Shown: positions 1,687 through 28,923, numbered from the stretch's first letter. The stretch is DNA of 64,000 bases from an uncultured Planctomycetia bacterium (GCA_964605665.1 CAZSDP010000001.1:203166-267165); one strand, 5' to 3'. Notes: generated by a model from the letters alone, not told the origin. Numbers and translations are program-made.

Positions 1687-2584
1687 AAACCAACCACGCA
1701 AAGGTCGTTCGCCAACCCAGTTGGCAGTGCGAAGACTCAAGAAGAACCGCCTCGCGATGGTCGGCCTCGCAGCGGTGTCTGTCGTGGTGATCCTCGGCTT
1801 GTTTCCAGGTCTCCTCGCACCTCACGACTATGCACTGCAGTACCGAGACAATGATTCCTGGCAAGTTCCACCGATCTATTGGCCCGGCTTTTCAGGTGAA
1901 TCGAACCCGTCACATCCCCTCGGAACAGACGAGCTCGGAAGAGACGTCCTCTCGAGATTGATCTATGGAGCTGGAATTTCACTTCGAGTCGGTGTCGTGG
2001 GCACTGCGGTCGCCGTCTTGATCGGAGTTCTCTTCGGAGCCATTGCTGGCTATTTCGCGGGACTGACCGACTGGACAATTTCGCGATTGACCGACACCTT
2101 CTTCGCATTTCCGAGCCTACTCCTCGCCATCGGGATACTTGCCGTCTTCGAAGAGCCAAACGAGACGATTATTTTCGCGGCGCTCGGTCTAGTGGGTTGG
2201 CCAGGGGTCGCCCGAATCGTGCGAGGACAAGTGATCTCACTCCGAAACTCGGAATATGTGCTCGCGGCACAAGCACTCGGACAAAAGAATTCAGCGATCT
2301 TGATTCGCCACATTCTCCCCAATTGCATGGGGCCGATCGTGGTCGTGGCGACACTGATGATCGCAGGTAACATCCTCGCCGAGGCAGGACTGAGCTTCCT
2401 CGGAATCGGCCTCCCTCCTCCCAGTCCATCGTGGGGAAGAATGTTGGTCGACTCCAAGGAGTTTTGGCCAACGATGCCTTGGATGGGGGTCCTACCAGGA
2501 CTCGCCATCAGCTTTACAGTTCTCGGCTTCAATCTCTTTGGGGATGGCCTACGCGATGCGTTCGATCCGAAGATGAGGGCTTAG
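1673..2584 (+). CDS. ABC transporter permease, DppC/OppC family
   Basis: N-terminal OppC_N-like region, six TM segments and an EAA loop 'AAQALGQKNSAILIRHILPN'. Confidence 0.9.
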   Translation: MAEVENQPRKGRSPTQLAVRRLKKNRLAMVGLAAVSVVVILGLFPGLLAPHDYALQYRDNDSWQVPPIYWPGFSGESNPSHPLGTDELGRDVLSRLIYGAGISLRVGVVGTAVAVLIGVLFGAIAGYFAGLTDWTISRLTDTFFAFPSLLLAIGILAVFEEPNETIIFAALGLVGWPGVARIVRGQVISLRNSEYVLAAQALGQKNSAILIRHILPNCMGPIVVVATLMIAGNILAEAGLSFLGIGLPPPSPSWGRMLVDSKEFWPTMPWMGVLPGLAISFTVLGFNLFGDGLRDAFDPKMRA

Positions 2585-2648
2585 TACTTCGGCACCGACT
2601 TCCAAATAAAAACGACCAGTTGAACTCTCAGAACCGCTCCGCTCAACT

Positions 2649-3617
2649 TCAAGTCTGATCCTTAGGATCGAGAGCATCTCTCAGAGCATCCCCGAGATGC
2701 CCTAAGGCACCGAGCGTGGCGACAATGACCACAGAAGGGAAAAAGATCAGCCACCAGGGCGGATCGATCGGGGTCATCACTTCAAATGCGTCGCGTGAAA
2801 GCGTTCCCCAGCTCACCAAGGGGGCTTGTACCCCGAGACCAAGAAAACTCAAGAACGCCTCCACCAAGAGAATTTTTGGAATCGTCAGGGTCAAGGTGAC
2901 GATGATCACGGGGAGCAAGTTCGGAAACACGTGAGAACGAACCAACCGGGACGAGCTTCCTCCGAGCGCCCGCGCCGCCTCAACATATTCCCGTTCGCGT
3001 AATGAGATCACTTGGCCATGGACCACTCTTGCCATCGTCAGCCAGTAAACCAATCCCAAGGTCACCAAAAACACGGTGAGATTTCCCATTGTCCCCGAAA
3101 ACACCGGGACTCCTCTGGCGACCGTGACGAAGAAGATCACCAAGAAGATGAATGGGATCGAGTAAAGAACATCGACAATGCGCATCATCACATTGTCCAA
3201 CCAGCCTCCCACAAATCCTGCGGTAGCCCCCCAAAGTACGCCAATCGTCAAAGACACAAATGCGGCCGCAAGAGCGGTGACGAGAGAAATCCTCGCTCCC
3301 CATAGGATCCTCGAGAGCAGGTCGCGCCCCAACGCATCGGTACCGCAGAGAGCGTGAATCTCCGTATCTCCAAAGAGAAAACCTCTGACCGAATCATCGA
3401 GGTGAGATGCGGAGGAACGAACATCCAGTTGTGGGGGACTCAATGCCGCTGCGAGGTCGATCGCCTTCGGTGAGGACAAGGGGAGCCACGGAGTCGCGAG
3501 CGTCAAAAGACAAACAAAGCAGAGAAAGCAGAAGGCGGTGATCGTGCTCTTTCGCGCGAATAGTCGCCGTATCGCGCGCGATCCTGGACTTTTCGCAGAA
3601 GCAACCGCGTGCGGCAT
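2649..3617 (-). CDS. ABC transporter permease, DppC/OppC family
   Basis: 'YVEAARALGGSSSRLVRSHVFPNLLP' EAA loop. It is translationally coupled to the upstream permease (ATGA overlap at 3617). Confidence 0.9.
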   Translation of the reverse strand: MPHAVASAKSPGSRAIRRLFARKSTITAFCFLCFVCLLTLATPWLPLSSPKAIDLAAALSPPQLDVRSSASHLDDSVRGFLFGDTEIHALCGTDALGRDLLSRILWGARISLVTALAAAFVSLTIGVLWGATAGFVGGWLDNVMMRIVDVLYSIPFIFLVIFFVTVARGVPVFSGTMGNLTVFLVTLGLVYWLTMARVVHGQVISLREREYVEAARALGGSSSRLVRSHVFPNLLPVIIVTLTLTIPKILLVEAFLSFLGLGVQAPLVSWGTLSRDAFEVMTPIDPPWWLIFFPSVVIVATLGALGHLGDALRDALDPKDQT

Positions 3618-16037: not shown

Positions 16038-18419
16038 ATGACTGGAGCGAGCACCATTTTCGAGAATCTCGATTGGGGTCCCGCACCGGAGGCTGACGGT
16101 CCAGCACGAGCTTGGATCGAACAGCTTGGCGAGGTCGCCCCTTTGTTCATCGATGGAGACTGGGCTAGACCGAAGAAGGCATCGACCTTTCCCACTCGCA
16201 ACCCAGCAACGGGAGAAACGCTGACTCAAATTGTTCAGACCGAACAGAAGGAAGTCGACCGTGCAGTCCAAGCAGCTCGAGCTGCACAGCCCGGCTGGGC
16301 TTCGGTGGGGGGGGCTGCCCGAGCTCGCTACCTCTATGCGATTTCACGTGGCATCCAAAAGAACTCCAGGCTCTTCGCCACACTTGAGACCCTCGACAAC
16401 GGGAAACCGATTCGAGAAACCCGGGACATCGATGTCCCCCTGGTGGCTCGACACTTCCATCACCATGCTGGCTGGGCTGAGATCTTGGACGTCAAAGCTC
16501 CGACTTTGAAGCCGTGGGGGGTTTGTGGCCAGGTCGTGCCATGGAACTTCCCACTTCTCATGCTCGCCTGGAAAATCGCCCCAGCCCTCGCTGCAGGAAA
16601 CACCGTGGTTCTCAAACCTGCGGAATGGACGTCCCTCACCGCGATACTCTTTGCAGAGCTTTGCGACTCCGTTGGACTCCCTCCCGGAGTCGTCAACATC
16701 GTCACTGGCGATGGCACAACCGGAGCAGGACTAGTGGGGCATCCCGACATCGACAAGGTTGCATTTACCGGCTCCACAGAAGTCGGAAGAATCATCCGAA
16801 AGCAGATCGCCGGAAGCGGGAAGGGACTGACTCTCGAGCTCGGCGGAAAAAGCCCCTTTATCGTTTTCGAAGATGCGGATCTCGACTCAGCCATCGAGGG
16901 AATCGTCGACGCAATATGGTTTAACCAAGGGCAAGTTTGTTGCGCAGGCAGTCGATTGCTCGTCGCCGAATCGATCGCCGACGTCTTCCACGCTAAGCTT
17001 GAAGCACGGATGAAGCGCCTCAGAGTTGGTAACCCTCTCGACAAAGCCGTTGACCTCGGAGCGATGATCGAAGAAGACCACCTCAACAATGTCCGCTCGC
17101 TCTGCTCCGCTGCGGTAGAAGACGGCAATCGCTGCATTCAATCTGCAGAAGATTTGCCCAAGGAAGGATTTTGGTTCCCACCAACACTCTTCCCAAACGT
17201 CTCACCAGCGTCTCAAATCGCCCAAGAAGAAGTCTTCGGTCCAGTCCTCGTCTCGATGACCTTCAGAACTCCCACCGAGGCGATCGCGCTCGCGAATCAC
17301 ACTCGCTACGGCCTGGCCGGCAGTGTTTGGACGCAAGATCTCGATACAGCACTCCACGTCGCGAGAGCTCTTCACGCCGGCACGGTGTGGGTCAACTCAA
17401 CAAACCTCTTCGATGCGGCTTCCGGATTTGGTGGGGTTCGCGAATCAGGTTTTGGCCGTGAAGGGGGACTCGAGGGCCTTCATGCGTACCTTCGCCCGTC
17501 TGAATCGTGGGAACCGCAAACATCAGGACAAGCACCAGGAAAACTACAGACCAGCGATACCCAGCCAACGATCGAATCACCATCCCTCGATCGCACTGCG
17601 AAACTGTACATCGGAGGCAAACAGTGCCGACCCGATGGGGGCTACTCACTCGAAGTCTTAAATCCTGCTGGAGAAAACATCGACAAGGTGGGCCGCGGGA
17701 ATAGAAAAGACATCCGTAACGCGGTCGAAGCAGCGAACAGTGCGCGATCTTGGGGTCAAACCGATGCCCACCTTCGCTCTCAGATTCTTTGGTATCTGGC
17801 AGAGAATCTAGCGCCCCGTACCCAGGAACTCTCCAATCGCATCGCATCGATGACCGGCTGCGACACTGCATCCGCAACCGAAGAGGTTGAACTCGCGATT
17901 CAGAGACTGACACACTGGGCCTCTTGGGCCGATAAACACGATGGGGCAGTTCACGCCGTCCCAATTCGCGGCCTCGTACTCGCTCTTCACGAACCTGTCG
18001 GCGTGGTCGGAGTGGTGTGCCCAAACCACGAACCCCTCCTTTCGCTGATCGCCCTGGTAGCACCCTTGATCGCCACCGGGAACACTGTCGTCGCCATTCC
18101 GAGCGAGACTGCACCACTGGCTGCAACAGACCTCTACCAGGTCCTCGAAACCTCCGACATCCCGGGCGGCGTGCTCAATATCGTCACCGGAATCCACAGC
18201 GAGCTGACTCCACATCTCGCCTCCCACGATGCTATCGATATGATCTGGCATGCCGGCAGCAAAGAGAGCGCGGCCGAAGCGGAAGTCCTCTCCGCCGGAA
18301 ACCTCAAACGAACCTGGTGCCCACTCGGGTTCTCAGGAAGGCAACCTCGATCGAAGAGTGAGGAACTACTGAGGCAAGGAACCAGGGTCAAAAACCTCTG
18401 GCTTCCTCACGGAGTCTGA
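16038..18419 (+). CDS. NAD(P)-dependent aldehyde dehydrogenase with a C-terminal partial ALDH-like (NAD-binding half) duplication
   Basis: Complete ALDH core in aa 1–~490: 'VVPWNFPLLM', catalytic 'ELGGKSP', catalytic Cys 'QGQVCCAGSRL'. Residues ~500–793 repeat an ALDH N-terminal-like fold ('VCPNHEPLLSLIALVAPLIATGNTVV') without a second catalytic Cys. Confidence 0.8.
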   Translation: MTGASTIFENLDWGPAPEADGPARAWIEQLGEVAPLFIDGDWARPKKASTFPTRNPATGETLTQIVQTEQKEVDRAVQAARAAQPGWASVGGAARARYLYAISRGIQKNSRLFATLETLDNGKPIRETRDIDVPLVARHFHHHAGWAEILDVKAPTLKPWGVCGQVVPWNFPLLMLAWKIAPALAAGNTVVLKPAEWTSLTAILFAELCDSVGLPPGVVNIVTGDGTTGAGLVGHPDIDKVAFTGSTEVGRIIRKQIAGSGKGLTLELGGKSPFIVFEDADLDSAIEGIVDAIWFNQGQVCCAGSRLLVAESIADVFHAKLEARMKRLRVGNPLDKAVDLGAMIEEDHLNNVRSLCSAAVEDGNRCIQSAEDLPKEGFWFPPTLFPNVSPASQIAQEEVFGPVLVSMTFRTPTEAIALANHTRYGLAGSVWTQDLDTALHVARALHAGTVWVNSTNLFDAASGFGGVRESGFGREGGLEGLHAYLRPSESWEPQTSGQAPGKLQTSDTQPTIESPSLDRTAKLYIGGKQCRPDGGYSLEVLNPAGENIDKVGRGNRKDIRNAVEAANSARSWGQTDAHLRSQILWYLAENLAPRTQELSNRIASMTGCDTASATEEVELAIQRLTHWASWADKHDGAVHAVPIRGLVLALHEPVGVVGVVCPNHEPLLSLIALVAPLIATGNTVVAIPSETAPLAATDLYQVLETSDIPGGVLNIVTGIHSELTPHLASHDAIDMIWHAGSKESAAEAEVLSAGNLKRTWCPLGFSGRQPRSKSEELLRQGTRVKNLWLPHGV

Positions 18420-18443
18420 GACCAGTCGCACCGCGCGAAAGTC

Positions 18444-18492
18444 CGAGACCCGGAACAACCCAGTGCCGGAACAATTCAGAGCCGGAACAAAC
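18444..18492. repeat. Three direct repeats of 'ccggaacaa' with an exact 16-nt period
   Basis: Copies at ~18450, 18466 and 18482 in the convergent intergenic region between the ALDH and SDR genes. Confidence 0.5.
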
Positions 18493-18669
18493 TAGAGCCG
18501 CGGACCATGCCAAAGCCCGAGCAAACTCGAGCAACCGCGATCCAAACCGCTCCCAAATGGCCACCAACCGCGATTCTCGGCATTTCGGCACGCATCATAA
18601 TATACCTTATCGGAACGTCGAGAATTTGAGCGCCGGCCCTGGGTGACCCCGGACCGATCGACTTGGAAC

Positions 18670-19401: not shown

Positions 19402-20270
19402 CCACGGTCCAGTCGGGATCGGACCGCCTCGATGAATCGATTGAGCGCCGGTGGATGCTGCAGAAAGAACAGACTTGGCTCCAACAGCTCCAATTCCGCG
19501 AGCAACCATTTCCCATCTGAATCTTGAATCATGTCCACTCTGCCGTAGAGAATCTCCGGAACTCTCTCAAGGATCCGGCTTGCAAGTACCTTTTGCTCAT
19601 CGTTTGGCACAAATGCGTCAGAGATCCGCTCTTCATCATCGTGGAAACGTGGGGATTTACGAACTGCATGGGAACACTGACCATCGATAAAGACGATCGC
19701 GTGTTCCCCAATTGGACCCTCGACCGCTTCGAGGTATTCCTGAATCATCCAGTCTCGCTCGTGAGCACCATCACTCAAAAATTTCTGCGCGCGGTCGACC
19801 TCGTTCGCGTCGAACCTCTCAGTCATCAACGAGCCCGCCGAGATTGTCGGCTTCACCACAAAACGCGACCATCCCCTTTGCTCGATCAGACTCTCCACAT
19901 CGATGGCATGACCTCTTTCGATAAACTCGGTCGGAATTGTGGAGATTCCTAGGGCATCGTACTCACGGAGATACGTTTTTCTGAGGTTCCAACGACAGAC
20001 CTCCAGGGGATTGTAGAGGCGGCTCACCCCATTCACCGACTCTAACCAAGCCTCGAATTCCTCCGGATGCTCCGGATAGTTCCAACACGATCTCAAAATA
20101 CAAAGATCATACTTTTCAGGGGTCGCGGCCGGATCATCCCAAGGAAGTAGATCGACTTCGATTCCTGCCTCATCAAATGCCCCCACCAGCACCGCTTCAT
20201 CGGGATCCGGCTCAGGAATATCGATACAGGTCACCAGAGCCACCCGCCCCAATTCACTTTTCTTCATCAC
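19398..20270 (-). CDS. ATP-grasp family protein (RimK/glutathione-synthetase-like ligase)
   Basis: 290 aa. The central 'VVKPTISAGSLMTERF' and C-terminal 'WLLAELEL' pattern is consistent with an ATP-grasp fold. Coupled to both neighbours by ATGA overlaps. Confidence 0.5.
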   Translation of the reverse strand: MMKKSELGRVALVTCIDIPEPDPDEAVLVGAFDEAGIEVDLLPWDDPAATPEKYDLCILRSCWNYPEHPEEFEAWLESVNGVSRLYNPLEVCRWNLRKTYLREYDALGISTIPTEFIERGHAIDVESLIEQRGWSRFVVKPTISAGSLMTERFDANEVDRAQKFLSDGAHERDWMIQEYLEAVEGPIGEHAIVFIDGQCSHAVRKSPRFHDDEERISDAFVPNDEQKVLASRILERVPEILYGRVDMIQDSDGKWLLAELELLEPSLFFLQHPPALNRFIEAVRSRLDRG

Positions 20271-21802
20271 TGGGGATGACCTTCATGCTTTGATTTCTGG
20301 TCTGCCGCTGGCGGACAGATTTGATCGTAAGCAATTTCCTCAAGCGCCTCATCTGTCAACTGGCGAGCCATCTCTCTTGAGACGTCAATTCCATAGAAGA
20401 TGGAAGCTTGAATTCGTGCTTGCTCAGCAAAGAGCAGACTTCCGTCTATCGATTTTGCTCCATGACCAGCGCACAACTTCAAGAAGTCGGTCTCCTTCGG
20501 TTCATAGCTATAGTCGATTGCCCATCCTCCGCGGAATCGATCGATTGGCCATCTGAGCCGATCTTGGGAGATGGAACCTAATCCTGACGCGTTGATGAGG
20601 ATTTCCGTCCTCTCAATTTCCTCCGGCCCTGCCTCCGGGATCGAACCTTCGATCAGACACTTTGGCAACCGTCCTTTTATTCGCGGCAAGACTGAGACGC
20701 GCCCTCCCCGGGCGGCGAGCTCAAGGGCGATCGGCTGGGCAACTCCCCCACTTCCGATAATCAAAATCTTTTCACCAAACGGTATTTCGTGTTCAGAGAA
20801 GATCCGCACTAGAGCTGGAACATCGGTATTCCAACCCAACACATCCCCCTCTTCGTGCAGAAGCGTATTCCAACTGGGATGCCGCTCTTCGCCGGCAGCT
20901 CCCGCACGTCCTTGTCCACGCGCCCAAATCTTGTGAGGCGCCGTCACCGCTAGGCATCTCGGTGGCTCGTAGCTGCCGACAGCTCGCTCGAAAATGCCGT
21001 CTGGAGTATCTAAAGAGAAGTCGACCCAACGTTCACGATGGTTCGCCGCGGTGAGAACACGATTGTGAAAACCTGGCGAAATCGACCTCGTCACATCCCC
21101 ACCGATCACTGCACACCAACTCTGGCCGTCTCCTTGGAGCCCTCCTCCATATCGCGTCGGGATGCTCTGAACCACCGGCTGCCCCTCTGCCGTTCCGACG
21201 CAACCCGCCAATCGCCCATAAGCCCAGGACTGTCCATTGGCCAAAGCGAGAAATCGGGAAGCTGTTCCCATCTTTGAAGCCGCGAACATCACCACCGGTC
21301 GTGGTCCCCCAAACTCAGAGGAGATGCGCAATGCCTGTCCCGTTGCGGCAACTCCCCCATTCGCCAAAACGAGCTTTCCGGCATCGACGCCCGGCCTCAA
21401 CAAGTCTCGAGCTGCGCCGCGAATCGCCGCGTCCGATTGTGGCTCCTCGAGATGTCTGCTCAGAATCACCTGCACATCGAGAGATCGCTCACTGTTCAAG
21501 GACAGGTTCCTCAAGGCCGCTGGATCATCCACATCGAGATCGATCCAGAGTTTGCCTCCATGCCCCGCTATCGCGTCCTTCAGGTAACGAAGCCGTTCCG
21601 ATTCACGGGACAATCCCGGTTTCCAGGCGATCACCTTTGGCTGAGCGATGGCGCAGATCTCAGCAAGAGAAAGAGGCGAGTCCCACAAATCGAAGCGAAA
21701 TTCAATCGCTCCAGAGCTTCGAATCGCTCGCGAATCTTGCAAAAATCTACGAAAAGACTCTCGGCTCGGAAGGACCGTCACCCACCGCGGAGACAGCTCC
21801 AT
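20267..21802 (-). CDS. Bifunctional 3-dehydroquinate dehydratase (type I) / shikimate 5-dehydrogenase-like protein
   Basis: The N-terminal half matches AroD type I ('IEFRFDL', 'PVVMFAASKMGTASRFLALANGQSWAYG'). The C-terminal half matches AroE ('VIGGDVTRSISPGFHN', Rossmann 'ILIIGSGGVAQPIALEL'). Confidence 0.65.
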   Translation of the reverse strand: MELSPRWVTVLPSRESFRRFLQDSRAIRSSGAIEFRFDLWDSPLSLAEICAIAQPKVIAWKPGLSRESERLRYLKDAIAGHGGKLWIDLDVDDPAALRNLSLNSERSLDVQVILSRHLEEPQSDAAIRGAARDLLRPGVDAGKLVLANGGVAATGQALRISSEFGGPRPVVMFAASKMGTASRFLALANGQSWAYGRLAGCVGTAEGQPVVQSIPTRYGGGLQGDGQSWCAVIGGDVTRSISPGFHNRVLTAANHRERWVDFSLDTPDGIFERAVGSYEPPRCLAVTAPHKIWARGQGRAGAAGEERHPSWNTLLHEEGDVLGWNTDVPALVRIFSEHEIPFGEKILIIGSGGVAQPIALELAARGGRVSVLPRIKGRLPKCLIEGSIPEAGPEEIERTEILINASGLGSISQDRLRWPIDRFRGGWAIDYSYEPKETDFLKLCAGHGAKSIDGSLLFAEQARIQASIFYGIDVSREMARQLTDEALEEIAYDQICPPAADQKSKHEGHPQ

Positions 21803-21914
21803 TCTGACTCACCTCCCTTAGATTCGCCGTTCCCGGTGGCTTTTGGGGACACTCTTCTTTCACACATCAAGTCCATCAAAAGGAGAAAGTCGTGAAGGTC
21901 AGGCTCAGGATTTT

Positions 21915-21942
21915 GTTGGACCGATGCCGATAGTGGTTATAA
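21915..21942 (+). promoter_or_regulatory. Candidate σ70-type promoter (TTGGAC–16 nt–TATAAT) for a long rho leader
   Basis: Hexamers read directly. The TSS would lie ~940 nt upstream of the rho ATG. Confidence 0.3.
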
Positions 21943-22346
21943 TCTGCCACAGCAGCCGGGTCGAGTAGACCCTCGCTTGCTTCCCCGTGGCACTTCGATT
22001 CCAGTGAAACTGAATTCAATTCCAATGAGTTTGGTTGCCTTTTCGAGGCCTCTTGAGCATAGCCTTTCGACGAAAGGCCGTATCGGATCTCTCCGACTCT
22101 TGCAGGCCGTTCTTGTTCGGGGCTTTCTTTTTCGGGGGATTTCTTTTCAGGTCACCCGAACTCAAAGAAACCGAGTTCAATTCACTGGAATAGGCTCACC
22201 AGCTCATACGAGGCTTGACCGTCTTAGCTCGAGCAATCCAGAGCCCGCAATGGAGTGTATCCGTCAGCCAGGATTTGGAGTTCCTGCGCATGATCGGAAT
22301 GGGGTGTGTGCCTTTTGACGCCTCTCCGCTCGATGAATTGCTCGAT

Positions 22347-22440
22347 CGCAGTGGCGAACTCAGAAAACTGAGAACTCAGAAAACTGAGAATTCAGAGAAC
22401 TGAGAATTCAATGCACGTGACTTTCAGTGCACGAGACTCT
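22347..22440 (+). repeat. Six degenerate tandem 16-nt repeats (aactcagaaaactgag ×2, then variants) in the rho leader
   Basis: Direct reading: two perfect copies, then four decaying copies sharing a 'tcag' core. No spacers, so not CRISPR. Confidence 0.7.
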
Positions 22441-22888
22441 CAGTGAAACGATGCGCGGGTTAAAGTAGGGAAATCCGCAAGTCTTTAGAGACTGTTCTTT
22501 AAAGGCCGTCGAATCGTCTTCGTTTCGAGTTCCTCGAAACGCTCTCATGTCGGCGCTGACTTTCCAGCTGATCTCCAGTCCGGGTGCTTCGCATCGCCTT
22601 CTTTTGCCCCTTCGCCTTGTCGGAGCTTGAGCAAAATTCGGTGGTCGCTGTTAACCAAGATCGAGACGTTGGATTCAACTGATTCAATCCTCACTCATCA
22701 TGACGGTCGTACTGAAGTCCGTCGATTGAGGTTCACGCTCCAGATTTTCACATCTGTGTGAATTCACCTGGATCGTCATACCTCGCAACTCATCTGACCA
22801 ATGTGAGTCAGGCTTCACACCTCCGTTTCCCTGCAACGCGCGTTGAATTCGCGAGTGAAACGGTGACATATCAAGGAGAGATTCGAAC

Positions 22889-24478
22889 TTGAACTCCCAG
22901 AACCGAGACGATTCATCCAGTCAACGCCCTTCGGGCTCGCGTAGCCGCAGAGGTGGAAGAACCGGTGGATCCCGAAAGAGTGGCACAGGAGAGAGCCGCG
23001 CCGATGGTCGTAGTGATCGGCGCGCAGGTTCATCACGACGTTCGCAGCCACGCGCTTCCAGTTCAGAGCGAGGCGAGGAGCGCCGCACGCGAGGCTCGAA
23101 CCGACGCTCCGATGGACGGCATTCCGAGCATCGCCAGGGCCAAAATGGAGATTCCCGACGATCGCGTCGCACCACTGATGGTCGTCACCGCTCTACTGGT
23201 GATTCCCGCCGTGGAGAGAGCGAGGGCCGATCTGGACGCCCTTCCCGCTCTCATTCAGGCCGTGGGGGGAGAAACGACCAACGCCGACGGCAAAAGCCTC
23301 GCAACGATCATAGGAATTCCGACTTTGCGGTCGATGAGTCATATCCGACCGGGCCTGGCGACCGATCCAAGCGAGAGTTGGTTCGCGGGATCCTGGAAAT
23401 CGGAAACCAAGGTTTTGGCTTCCTTCGAAATCCACAAAAGAGCTTCCGCATTCAACCGATGGACGTCCATGTCGGAAAGCACCTCGTCACCCGATACCGC
23501 CTACGCTCTGGGCACTACATCGTCGGAGCCACCGGTGGACATCGAGCGCCGAAAGGACGCGGGCCTTCGCTTCACGAGATCCACACTGTTGATGGGGATC
23601 CACCATCCGCGGTACCAAAGCGTCCATTCTATAAGGATCTCACCAGTATCGATCCAACTGAACGGTTCCAACTCGGCACCAACGGTGACCTCTCGATGCG
23701 CCTCGCCGACCTGATTGCTCCTGTGGGTAGAGGGCAGCGCGCACTGATCGTCGCCCCCCCCCGTACAGGCAAGACCGTTCTTCTGCAGAAAATGGCCCAA
23801 TCGATCACTTCGAGCTACCACGATGTCGCTGTCGTCACCCTCCTGGTCGATGAACGACCGGAGGAAGTCACCGACTGGAAGCGAAACGTTCGCGCGGAAG
23901 TTTATGCGTCCAGCTCCGACGAAAATTCAAAAAGCCATGTTCGCGTTGCCGAGATGGTCTTGAACCGCTGCCATCGACTGCTCGAGTCTGGTTGCGACGT
24001 CGTCCTGCTCCTTGATTCACTGACACGCCTAGGTCGCGCTTACAACTTAGAAACGGCACACAGTGGGCGCACTCTCTCCGGAGGCGTCGACGCCAAGACT
24101 CTTGAGAAACCGAAAGCAATCTTTGGCGCTGCGAGAAATGTTGAAGGTGGCGGAAGTTTGACAATCATCGCGACTGCGTTGATTGAGACTGGTAGCCGAA
24201 TGGACGAAGTGATCTTCGAAGAATTCAAGGGTACCGGAAATATGGAGCTCGTTCTCTCCAGAAAACTCGCTGATCACCGCGTCTTCCCCGCGATCGACGT
24301 CACACTGTCAGGAACGCGTAAAGAAGAGAAGTTGTATACCACGGAGGAGATCGACCAGATTTGGAAATTGCGTCGAGTACTGACGAATGTGAACCCCATC
24401 GAGGGTATGGAACTACTCAGCGAACGCGTCGGGGCTTTCGAAGACAACCAGAACTTCTTGCTATCGCTCAAAGCCTAG
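22889..24478 (+). CDS. rho: Transcription termination factor Rho with a ~150-aa R/S/G/D-rich disordered N-terminal extension
   Basis: OB-fold RNA-binding region ('[14 protein letters not shown]'), Walker A 'PPRTGKT', Q/R loops, and '[14 protein letters not shown]…SGGVD…[52 protein letters not shown]'. N-terminus '[15 protein letters not shown]…[11 protein letters not shown]…'. Confidence 0.9.
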
Positions 24479-27434: not shown

Positions 27435-28077
27435 GTGACTCTCCTCCCCAACCATCCCCGATCTCCCCAAAATCGGGCTAAAGCCCCTACATCGCCGATA
27501 TTTAGTCGAACTGCAGCAAAAATCTTCCTCGAAGCTCTCTCCGACTAGGGGCTAGTCAGAACGGCTGAGGATCGTACCATCGAGAGTAGAAGCCGCCAAA
27601 AGAACCAGATTCGGTCACTTCTCCAGTCTCGACGTGCCTGACGATCGTCGCGACCAAATTTCAGAGAAGACCACCAATCTGGGAGTATTGACCAACTTGG
27701 GGGCAGCGTTATAATTCCAAGATCCACGGGCACCTGTTCCCATCGGAACATGGAGGTTCGGGATGATGGTTCTAGTCGAAGACGGGGAGTTACCCCTCCC
27801 GGGGTAAATTGTCTTCAATGGGTCGAACCGTCTCCTGATTCGCCCCCCCAATCTGGCGAAGGTTAGATTCTTACGCCGATCGCGATTTTGCACTCCTCGT
27901 TGGAGCGAATGATCGTCCGGCGGCACCGACATTGTCTACTGTTGGTGCGGAGGGGCCTGTGGTTCGATCTTGTGAAGCAAGTGGAGCAGGTTTCGATCTG
28001 CCAGAGTTCCGTGAAGGTTCTCCACGTCGGACGCGTGGCAGGCCCTTCCGAGATTCCCTGAGGGGAGGACGATTCTC

Positions 28078-28923
28078 ATGAGTGGGCTCGCAAAAGCCTT
28101 CGTGGTGATCAACCTGATCCTAGCGCTCTTCTTTTTGGGCGCTGTGTCGACGCTTTTCCAAACACAAAAGAACTGGCGTCAAGTCGCTGAAGAAGGTCTT
28201 GAGGACTTCAAAGCAACTTCCGCGGATCTTCAGGCCGAGATCGAACGCCGCGACGGAACGATCGATTCGCTGGAAAGCTCAAATAAGAACATTTCATCGC
28301 AGAACAAGGTCCTCATGTCGGACAAGCAGAAGTTGCTGGATGACAATGGCGATCTGAAGACCCAGCTCGCAAATTCCGAGAGCCGTGTCGATGACCTCAA
28401 CAACCAGCTCTCTATTCGCGATCAGCGGCTTCAAGACAAAGACAACGCTCTTGCCGCCAAAGAAGATCGGATTGCTGATCTGATCGGACAGGCATCAGAA
28501 GCGGATGAGGCGAGAAAGAAAGCGGTCAAGCTGGCCCAGAGATCTCTGCTCGACCAGCAGGAATTGGCCAAGCTCGCCGAAGACACCAACATCGAACTCG
28601 CGGAAGCACGCGCTGAGCTGGAAGATGCTCAACTCGTGATCTCTGGCTATGAAGCCTCTGGTGTCGGTTCGGTCATGGTCGCGCAGCCGAAGATTGACGG
28701 AGTCGTGATGGCGGTCAACAACGGAATCGTTGTTCTTTCCGTCGGTCGCGACGACAACGTCAAAGCCGGTTACGAATTCACCATTTACGAAGGCGATACC
28801 TTTATCGGCAAAGTAAAGGTGGAAAACGTCGTTGGCGACATGGCAGGCGCACGTGTTCTCTTCACCGAGAGTGGCCAAACGATCCGTGCTGGCAACAAAG
28901 CCTCCACGCGCTTGGGCGCCTAA
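28078..28923 (+). CDS. Membrane-anchored coiled-coil protein with a C-terminal β-rich domain (hypothetical)
   Basis: N-terminal TM 'AFVVINLILALFFLGAV', ~170 aa of heptad-like charged repeats, and a C-terminal 'VKAGYEFTIYEGDTFIGKVKVENVV' β-domain. It lies upstream of the mre cluster. Confidence 0.45.
   Translation: MSGLAKAFVVINLILALFFLGAVSTLFQTQKNWRQVAEEGLEDFKATSADLQAEIERRDGTIDSLESSNKNISSQNKVLMSDKQKLLDDNGDLKTQLANSESRVDDLNNQLSIRDQRLQDKDNALAAKEDRIADLIGQASEADEARKKAVKLAQRSLLDQQELAKLAEDTNIELAEARAELEDAQLVISGYEASGVGSVMVAQPKIDGVVMAVNNGIVVLSVGRDDNVKAGYEFTIYEGDTFIGKVKVENVVGDMAGARVLFTESGQTIRAGNKASTRLGA

Follow-up and report, generated by a model that had tools for sequence, protein, structure and literature searches.

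A long conserved non-coding leader upstream of rho in an uncultured marine planctomycete: a possible autogenous Rho-dependent attenuator

A probable long untranslated leader precedes rho

We suggest that in an uncultured Planctomycetia bacterium, a marine member of Planctomycetota, the 1086-nt gap separating the transcription terminator gene rho from its divergently transcribed, aroDE-like neighbour (21803-22888) serves as the template for a ~940-nt leader of the rho mRNA, and that this long cis-regulatory leader acts as an autogenous Rho-dependent attenuator, a reading to which we give an even chance. The gap was studied within a 64-kb stretch of DNA (hereafter the window, the coordinates of which are used throughout) and compared with the corresponding loci of ~30 related planctomycete genomes, designated by L-numbers. 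The nearest relative is a species represented by L001-L004 and L099 (L099 is identical to L001), with a Rho protein 95% identical to that of the window over the alignment and 93% identical by BLASTP. A first-pass annotation of the same DNA had read this region as holding rut-like (Rho utilization) or attenuator structures, or regulator-binding arrays. What stands of that reading is carried by the non-coding nature of the leader, its conserved promoter, the purifying selection acting on it and the precedent of rho autoregulation in other bacteria (PMC11599450).

The gap is non-coding and under purifying selection

The gap of the L001 species aligns with that of the window from end to end, with 82% identity over 1021 aligned columns. 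Four-fold degenerate sites in the same pair of genomes are only 48-53% identical (in rho, aroDE, gltX and a neighbouring gene), and we therefore conclude that the leader is subject to purifying selection. Mismatches in the gap fall on the three codon phases at 65/55/62, with no period-3 pattern, and the indels against L001 (1, 2, 8, 14 and 48 nt) break the reading frames. Open reading frames (ORFs) of 17-113 aa are present on both strands of the gap and are not conserved: 4 of the 19 that reach at least 15 aa are intact in L001, none of them preceded by a credible Shine-Dalgarno (SD) sequence. In the two longest shared ORFs (32 and 62 aa), which lie in a 95%-identical block, 14 of 16 and 15 of 21 changes, respectively, alter the amino acid. 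No conserved leader peptide or upstream ORF was found in the gap when the window and L001 were compared. Two candidates for a hidden gene were rejected: a 158-aa minus-strand gene called in the L001 gap has no intact counterpart in the window, and the two longest plus-strand ORFs of the gap gave no Pfam match. The gap is non-coding, in agreement with the first-pass annotation, which had noted ~1.1 kb without a credible ORF ahead of rho; a small unannotated gene on either strand, which it had named as a competing explanation, is contradicted by the tests of ORF conservation, Pfam matches and synonymous changes.

Constraint is unevenly distributed along the leader. Identity to L001 reaches 90-97% in the promoter region and the first 90 nt of the predicted transcript, drops to 40-72% in the apical part of the 5' structured domain and to 0-40% in the repeat region (mostly an insertion), and rises again to 90-95% at 22479-22640 and to 97% at 22790-22829. 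The sequence GTCTTTAGAGRCTGTTCTTTAAAG is an example of such a conserved block. Further out in the clade, nhmmer profiles built from four leader blocks had no match in the leaders of other species; the leader sequence itself turns over quickly, unlike its architecture.

The predicted promoter and 5' hairpin are conserved across the clade

The -10 hexamer of the promoter-like element (Table 1) is a perfect TATAAT, and the -35 hexamer TTGGAC retains the TTG and matches TTGACA at three of six positions. Because of this partial match, a strict consensus promoter scanner failed to call the site at 21916; a relaxed pattern finds two sites in the entire 64 kb, against 0.5 expected. No second promoter-like match was found on either strand of the gap, in the window or in L001. 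Transcription is predicted to start at ~21949-21951.

The element is identical in L001-L004 and keeps 24-26 of its 28 positions, spacer included, in L005, L019 and L041, the aroDE proteins of which are only 42-52% identical to that of the window. In the leaders of these three relatives, BLAST and nhmmer could align only the promoter and the first ~30 nt of the predicted transcript, and for some pairs also the region of the ribosome-binding site (RBS) and start codon. More distant subclades (~20 further species) carry CTGGAA-N17-TATCAT or CTGGAT-N17-TATGAT at the equivalent place, and in ~25 species representatives the element is located 390-970 nt upstream of the rho start. A metagenome scan with the promoter pattern for additional leader variants returned L005-type contigs only. 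The TTGGAC-16-TATAAT promoter listed in the first-pass annotation is thus both present and clade-conserved, and by sequence comparison this predicted promoter is the best-conserved element of the leader and the strongest comparative signal in it.

The spacer between the two hexamers (21922-21937) holds a CCGAT/GCCGAT direct repeat and is near-invariant in five species that are otherwise unalignable in the leader; it is not shared by the second promoter of this type, at 27688 in the window. Judging by this pattern, the spacer may be an operator specific to rho.

A short hairpin follows the predicted start. It is kept as GGGTCGAG..GACC in five species, with conservation of sequence and without covariation; a small hairpin is present after the predicted start in all groups, other subclades having a different one at the equivalent position. 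Stabilising stem-loops at the 5' terminus are known from bacterial mRNAs, for example in the ompA leader. The hairpin described here resembles them in lying at most ~25 nt from the predicted 5' end, at a position that is conserved across the clade. As predicted from these comparisons, the architecture is clade-wide: a promoter, a 5' hairpin, several hundred untranslated nucleotides, a strong SD and a non-ATG start.

A putative structured 5' domain, a pyrimidine-rich block and the rho start region

The segment 21951-22210 folds with -92.4 kcal/mol in RNAfold (z = -3.24, no shuffle among 200 being as stable), and the L001 orthologue, folded independently, forms the same basal helices at z = -3.83, even though its apical part differs by a 14-nt indel. 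Folding of the other segments is non-significant (the repeats have z = -1.3, 22440-22700 has -1.7 and the 3' end -0.4); across ten leaders, sliding-window z-scores are slightly below zero in the close group and approach zero in short leaders. The base of the domain is the inverted repeat pointed out in the first-pass annotation, which is real and extends over 11 rather than 10 nt. Perfect inverted repeats of at least 11 nt occur in 16% of dinucleotide shuffles of the gap, and taken alone it is therefore within chance. A direct repeat, GAAACYGARTTCAATTC, stands beside each arm, and the shared cores reported there were recovered as well, GAAACTGAATTCAATTC (22006) and GAAACCGAGTTCAATTC (22167) being 88% identical.

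In an RNAalifold alignment of the window, L001 and L002, which amounts to only two distinct sequences, 5 of the 311 consensus pairs are compensatory. When survival of the pairs of the window's fold was counted, 15 of the 23 changed pairs in the 5' domain were broken in L001; a control with slid pairs is an unclean null, the slid pairs being non-canonical in the window from the outset. The helices persist because their sequences persist. Of the fold and covariation check proposed in the first-pass annotation, then, the folding part is positive in both orthologues and the covariation part is not. We regard a structured RNA domain at 21998-22191 as plausible on the folding models.

The most conserved block of the leader is pyrimidine-rich: 22500-22630 contains 0.32 C, 0.31 T, 0.24 G and 0.13 A, with ~3.5 YC dinucleotides (a pyrimidine followed by C) per 16 nt. 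By composition and conservation, 22479-22640 would be the best candidate for Rho loading or for the binding of another factor. Three of the four plus-strand occurrences of the 8-mer AGTGAAAC in the 64 kb are in the leader, all three being kept in L001; the 8-mer was not found in the leaders of other species.

At the 3' end of the leader, CAAGGAG followed after 6-7 nt by TTG or GTG is near-universal among the ~30 clade members examined, with CAGGGAG, ACGAGGAG or TAGGAGT replacing CAAGGAG in a few. The combination of a weak start codon with a strong SD is therefore a conserved trait. Among clade members with an assignable start (L001-L043), almost all begin rho with TTG or GTG and not with ATG.

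The 16-nt tandem arrays are poorly conserved in the leader and lineage-wide in their periodicity

The six decaying 16-nt repeats of the first-pass annotation do form six units in a single register, starting at 22356 and not at 22347. Tandem Repeats Finder (TRF) resolves them into 22356-22410 (period 16, 3.4 copies, 94% matches) and 22408-22445 (period 16, 2.4 copies, 86%). TCA is invariant at unit positions 5-7 across all six, and each of the three perfect units can form a 5-bp mini-hairpin, CTCAG-AAAA-CTGAG. By windowed identity against L001 this array is the least conserved part of the leader. At the equivalent place L001 has three degenerate units (3506-3553), a difference of exactly 48 nt (3 x 16), so conservation of the repeat units in number or sequence was not found among relatives (6 vs 3). 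This speaks against the repeats as a conserved regulator-binding or rut array, and their conservation, which the first-pass annotation had tied to the leader reading, is missing in L001. The three perfect copies look like the product of recent, slippage-type expansion within a linker under little constraint, not like a conserved binding array, and the 16-nt array is unlikely to be the functional core of the leader. A second, T-rich array in the gap adjoins the 14-nt indel against L001, in a segment of only 40-50% identity.

The tandem arrays exceed chance by far, and similar ones are found outside the gap. The 16-nt periodicity noticed near 18444 was confirmed as an array beginning 27 nt past the stop of an aldehyde-dehydrogenase gene (16038-18419). 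The L001 species is without this array, and L101, a different species, has a 15-nt array (2.8 copies) right after the same gene, together with 16-, 15- and 17-nt arrays in other intergenic regions. Period 16 is shared by four of the five tandem arrays in the window. The rho leaders of L019, L041 and L034, unalignable with that of the window, contain 16-nt arrays of unrelated sequence, L041 also having a 17-nt array and L021 a 15-nt array, at differing positions within the leaders. Throughout the lineage such arrays are short (2-3.5 copies), with a period of 15-17 nt (mode 16) and unrelated units; at lag 16, and at no other, at least 26 of 32 positions match in three independent leaders, a result not obtained at any lag in 20 shuffled sets. 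In other phyla, period 16 was seen in one of ~21 arrays with a period that is not a multiple of three. Sorting the arrays into coding and non-coding ones by stop-free stretches proved too coarse in G+C-rich genomes and was not used. As the arrays also occupy other untranslated regions, the periodicity is lineage-wide and not specific to rho.

In the tail of the aldehyde-dehydrogenase gene (18420-18570), C (0.37) and A (0.32) predominate over G (0.24), T is scarce (0.07), and no intrinsic terminator was found; the tail looks like a Rho-dependent terminator region.

In their head-to-tail copies, in a copy number that differs between relatives (6 vs 3), and in having identical newest and decayed older units, the arrays resemble minisatellites produced by slippage. 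They are unlike them in that a period of 15-17 nt (mode 16) recurs with unrelated units across species and sites, which simple slippage would not predict: it is seen in the rho leaders of at least four species, in the aldehyde-dehydrogenase tail of two species and at the L101 intergenic sites. One could speculate, at long odds, that the arrays, rather than being neutral minisatellites, serve a multimeric RNA-binding machine as regularly spaced loading sites, so that termination or attenuation is tuned locally as units are gained or lost; that machine would most plausibly be the Rho of this lineage, with its disordered R/G-rich N-terminus. In E. coli each Rho subunit binds 5 nt, and with linkers of 4-5 nt this gives a period of ~10 nt (PMC12360218); the idea that a period of 16 reflects a Rho footprint was set aside as lacking direct support.

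Rho-dependent attenuation and competing explanations

Rho acts on untranslated nascent RNA, and a leader of nearly 1 kb makes autogenous attenuation the most economical reading. Under this model transcription would start ~7 nt past the TATAAT at 21938-21943, and the RNA would open with the small conserved hairpin, continue through the ~190-nt domain closed by the inverted repeat, then through a variable linker with the 16-nt repeats and the highly conserved pyrimidine-rich block, and end in a hairpin, a strong SD and the TTG start. When abundant, Rho would terminate transcription within its own leader; when it is scarce, more polymerases would reach the rho coding sequence, with the structured 5' domain and the start-proximal hairpin possibly adjusting RNA exposure and translation start. 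Autoregulation of rho by Rho-dependent attenuation in its leader is known from B. subtilis, E. coli, Salmonella and Caulobacter (PMC11599450); a table in PMC12360218 includes the rho leader of Salmonella together with SraL, the small RNA (sRNA) that counters attenuation there. The leader described here is similar to those of E. coli/Salmonella, B. subtilis and Caulobacter crescentus in being untranslated from promoter to rho, in lacking a strong intrinsic terminator and in encoding no constrained protein, and in those systems excess Rho ends its own transcript early (PMC11599450, PMC12360218). Unlike them, it has no sequence or Rfam similarity to a known leader and no classical C>G bubble, and the Rho of this organism may choose RNA differently because of its R/S/G-rich N-terminal region. 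There is also a parallel with leaders under conditional Rho termination, controlled by sRNAs, riboswitches or CsrA (Table 2 of PMC12360218): over several hundred nucleotides of leader, structure could make Rho-loading sites accessible or keep them masked, and conserved structured and unstructured blocks alternate here, in this case without a homologous family for the leader.

No convincing intrinsic terminator was found in the leader. The best candidate, at 22582-22599, has 5 bp (3 GC) and a weaker stem in L001, and terminator-like matches number 3 against 1.7 expected from shuffles, which disfavours an intrinsic-terminator attenuator. Rfam 15 gave no match at gathering score in the 64 kb, an E-value scan of 21000-23500 returned only chance-level miRNA and CRISPR-repeat models (E >=0.9), and no tRNA or tmRNA was found.

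Several points weigh against autogenous attenuation. The transcription start and the read-through into rho are predicted from sequence alone. With two distinct sequences aligned, compensatory support beyond chance was found for none of the helices. The composition of the leader is not what would be expected of a classical rut site: C/G is 1.07 overall, and 11 of 86 80-nt windows have C/G of at least 1.5, compared with 20% across the 64 kb, so that a rut-like composition does not distinguish the leader as a whole. Local C-rich, weakly paired candidates are present and modest, at 22510-22630 (C/G ~1.5) and 22730-22830 (C/G 1.6-1.8, mean pairing 0.51-0.56). This composition test is a weak one here, since the N-terminal region of the Rho protein is R/S/G-rich; a disordered R/G-rich domain in the Rho of M. 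tuberculosis redirects Rut choice to structured substrates and other motifs (PMC13650167). Finally, because a second leader in the same window is even more conserved, long conserved leaders may be a general habit of the lineage rather than a feature tied to Rho.

Part of the same evidence could be accommodated if the leader, cotranscribed with rho, worked post-transcriptionally, as a platform on which an sRNA, an RNA-binding protein or a ligand controls translation or mRNA stability, Rho itself not being the sensor. We consider this rather unlikely, and note that it is compatible with Rho attenuation, the two often acting together. It would account for the clade-wide conservation of the 5' hairpin, the SD-adjacent hairpin and the non-ATG start, for a predicted fold that pairs the SD region with early codons, and for the triple occurrence of AGTGAAAC, kept in L001; moreover, a 160-nt block conserved at 90-95% exceeds what a degenerate rut site needs, and the second, unrelated leader of the window is equally conserved and structured. 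Against such a platform stand the lack of a match to any riboswitch or cis-regulatory family and the retention of leader sequence only as far as the closest relative, unusual for a ligand-binding RNA. A further step down in probability is the proposal of two transcription units, in which the promoter at 21916 would serve a non-coding RNA distinct from the rho mRNA, such as the ~250-nt structured domain, and rho would have a nearer promoter of its own that was not recognised. The 5' domain folds better than shuffles in both orthologues and the leader blocks differ in their conservation, as this proposal would have it, and yet no intrinsic terminator follows the domain (apart from the weak 5-bp candidate at 22582), no second promoter-like element is present in the gap of either orthologue, and Rfam offers no match. 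In relatives with leaders of 390-470 nt, furthermore, nothing upstream but the promoter is conserved, and two units would hardly fit.

The remaining explanations place the function in the DNA or dispense with it. Palindromic 16-bp units (CTCAGAAAACTGAG) and the promoter spacer could be operators for a regulator of rho or aroDE, and a 14-bp palindrome is indeed contained in each of the three perfect units, the spacer CGATGCCGAT being conserved far beyond the needs of the -35 and -10 hexamers. The array, however, is placed ~410 bp downstream of the promoter, its copy number falls from 6 to 3 in the closest relative with loss of the palindrome, and the array units of other species are unrelated and mostly non-palindromic, which makes this explanation very improbable; conservation of the spacer, a distinct question, could stand without any role for the array. 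Least probable of all, and scarcely tenable, is a gap that is largely functionless spacer, with repeats and inverted repeat as products of chance and slippage. An inverted repeat within chance, an unstable array and the many 500-1900-nt gaps between long ORFs in this genome would fit, and are outweighed by a leader identity of 82% against ~50% at neutral sites, with blocks at 95%, and by a promoter conserved across ~30 species.

Genomic setting and other features of the window

The order aroDE(-)/gap/rho(+)/unknown(-)/gltX(-)/riboflavin synthase(-) is common to every relative fetched, and long ORFs in the genome are often separated by gaps of 500-1900 nt. The closest homologues of the Rho protein come from marine metagenome-assembled genomes labelled Planctomycetota or Planctomycetia, such as TMED53 and UBA1146. 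The first ~150 residues of the window's Rho (22889-23370, residues 1-160) form a low-complexity region rich in R, S, G and D, and no match to the Rho_N domain (PF07498) was obtained in this protein. Within the clade, the low-complexity N-terminal region varies from ~30 aa to ~380 aa, the latter in L019, where it is made of 15-nt coding repeats in 13 copies (2227-3375).

A second long leader follows the promoter TTGACC-N16-TATAAT (27688-27715) and covers ~360 nt (27716-28077) ahead of a gene for a 281-aa protein of unknown function (28078-28923). It is ~97% identical to L001 8519-9166, where the neighbouring coding sequence is 81-84% identical at the nucleotide level and four-fold sites ~50%; it folds with z = -3.5, none of 100 shuffles being as stable, and has no Rfam match. 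The stretch 27688-28077 is a candidate structured leader or non-coding RNA. Another promoter-like site, TCGACG-16-TATGAT (18594-18621, minus strand), lies in a stretch conserved with L099 and L100 (CATCATAATATACCTTATCGGAAC) and is oriented antisense to the aldehyde-dehydrogenase gene, reading into its 3' end.

Table 1. Predicted features of the rho leader, its flanking genes and the tandem arrays; positions are those of the window except where a relative's locus is named
Feature	Position	Strand	Details
Sigma-70-type promoter-like element	21916-21943	+	TTGGAC (21916-21921), 16-nt spacer CGATGCCGATAGTGGT, TATAAT (21938-21943)
5'-proximal hairpin	21958-21972	+	GGGTC-GAGTA-GACCC; ~8-22 nt past predicted start
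Perfect inverted repeat, 11 nt	21998-22008 / 22181-22191	+	ATTCCAGTGAA pairs with TTCACTGGAAT; 172 nt between
Putative long irregular hairpin domain, ~190 nt	21998-22191	+	Base formed by the 11-bp inverted repeat; extended by TGAATTC/GAGTTCA and TGAGTTTGG/CCGAACTCA helices
T-rich 16-nt array	22110-22147	+	TTCTTTTTCGGGGGAT, 2.4 copies (TRF); apical part of hairpin domain; absent from the first-pass annotation
Tandem array, six 16-nt units in a single register	22356-22451	+	Three near-identical GAACTCAGAAAACTGA units, then three decayed
Most conserved leader block	22479-22640	+	90-95% identity to L001; pyrimidine-rich
8-mer AGTGAAAC, three copies	22002-22009, 22441-22448, 22853-22860	+	Three of four plus-strand occurrences in 64 kb
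RBS-proximal hairpin	22823-22863	+	CCGTTTC...GAAACGG; found as inverted repeat, in consensus fold and in single-sequence fold; sequence conserved in L001
SD AAGGAGA and rho TTG start	22873-22879; 22889-22891	+	Start nine bases past SD
rho coding sequence, 529 aa	22889-24478	+	Pfam Rho_RNA_bind and ATP-synt_ab
aroD/aroE-like fusion gene	20267-21802	-	Divergent neighbour of rho
16-nt array	18446-18500		CCGGAACAA; period 16, 3.4 copies, 79%
Further arrays in relatives	L019 1600-1641, 1736-1773; L041 1865-1909, 2090-2138; L034 872-910		15-17-nt period
Further arrays in relatives	L021 2728-2773; L101 259-290, 2165-2205, 2678-2712, 12424-12465		15-17-nt period

Implications

Known autoregulatory rho leaders are several times shorter than the one described here. 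If the attenuation model is correct, autogenous control by Rho would extend to Planctomycetota, a phylum in which transcription termination has hardly been studied experimentally, and would take an unusually long form there (0.4-1 kb), non-homologous to known rho leaders and with an architecture shared by an entire marine clade. The most conspicuous feature of the leader, its repeats, is the one least likely to form its functional core. The 16-nt periodicity, together with long leaders conserved above the level of synonymous sites, suggests that regulation at the RNA level may be extensive in these uncultured bacteria.

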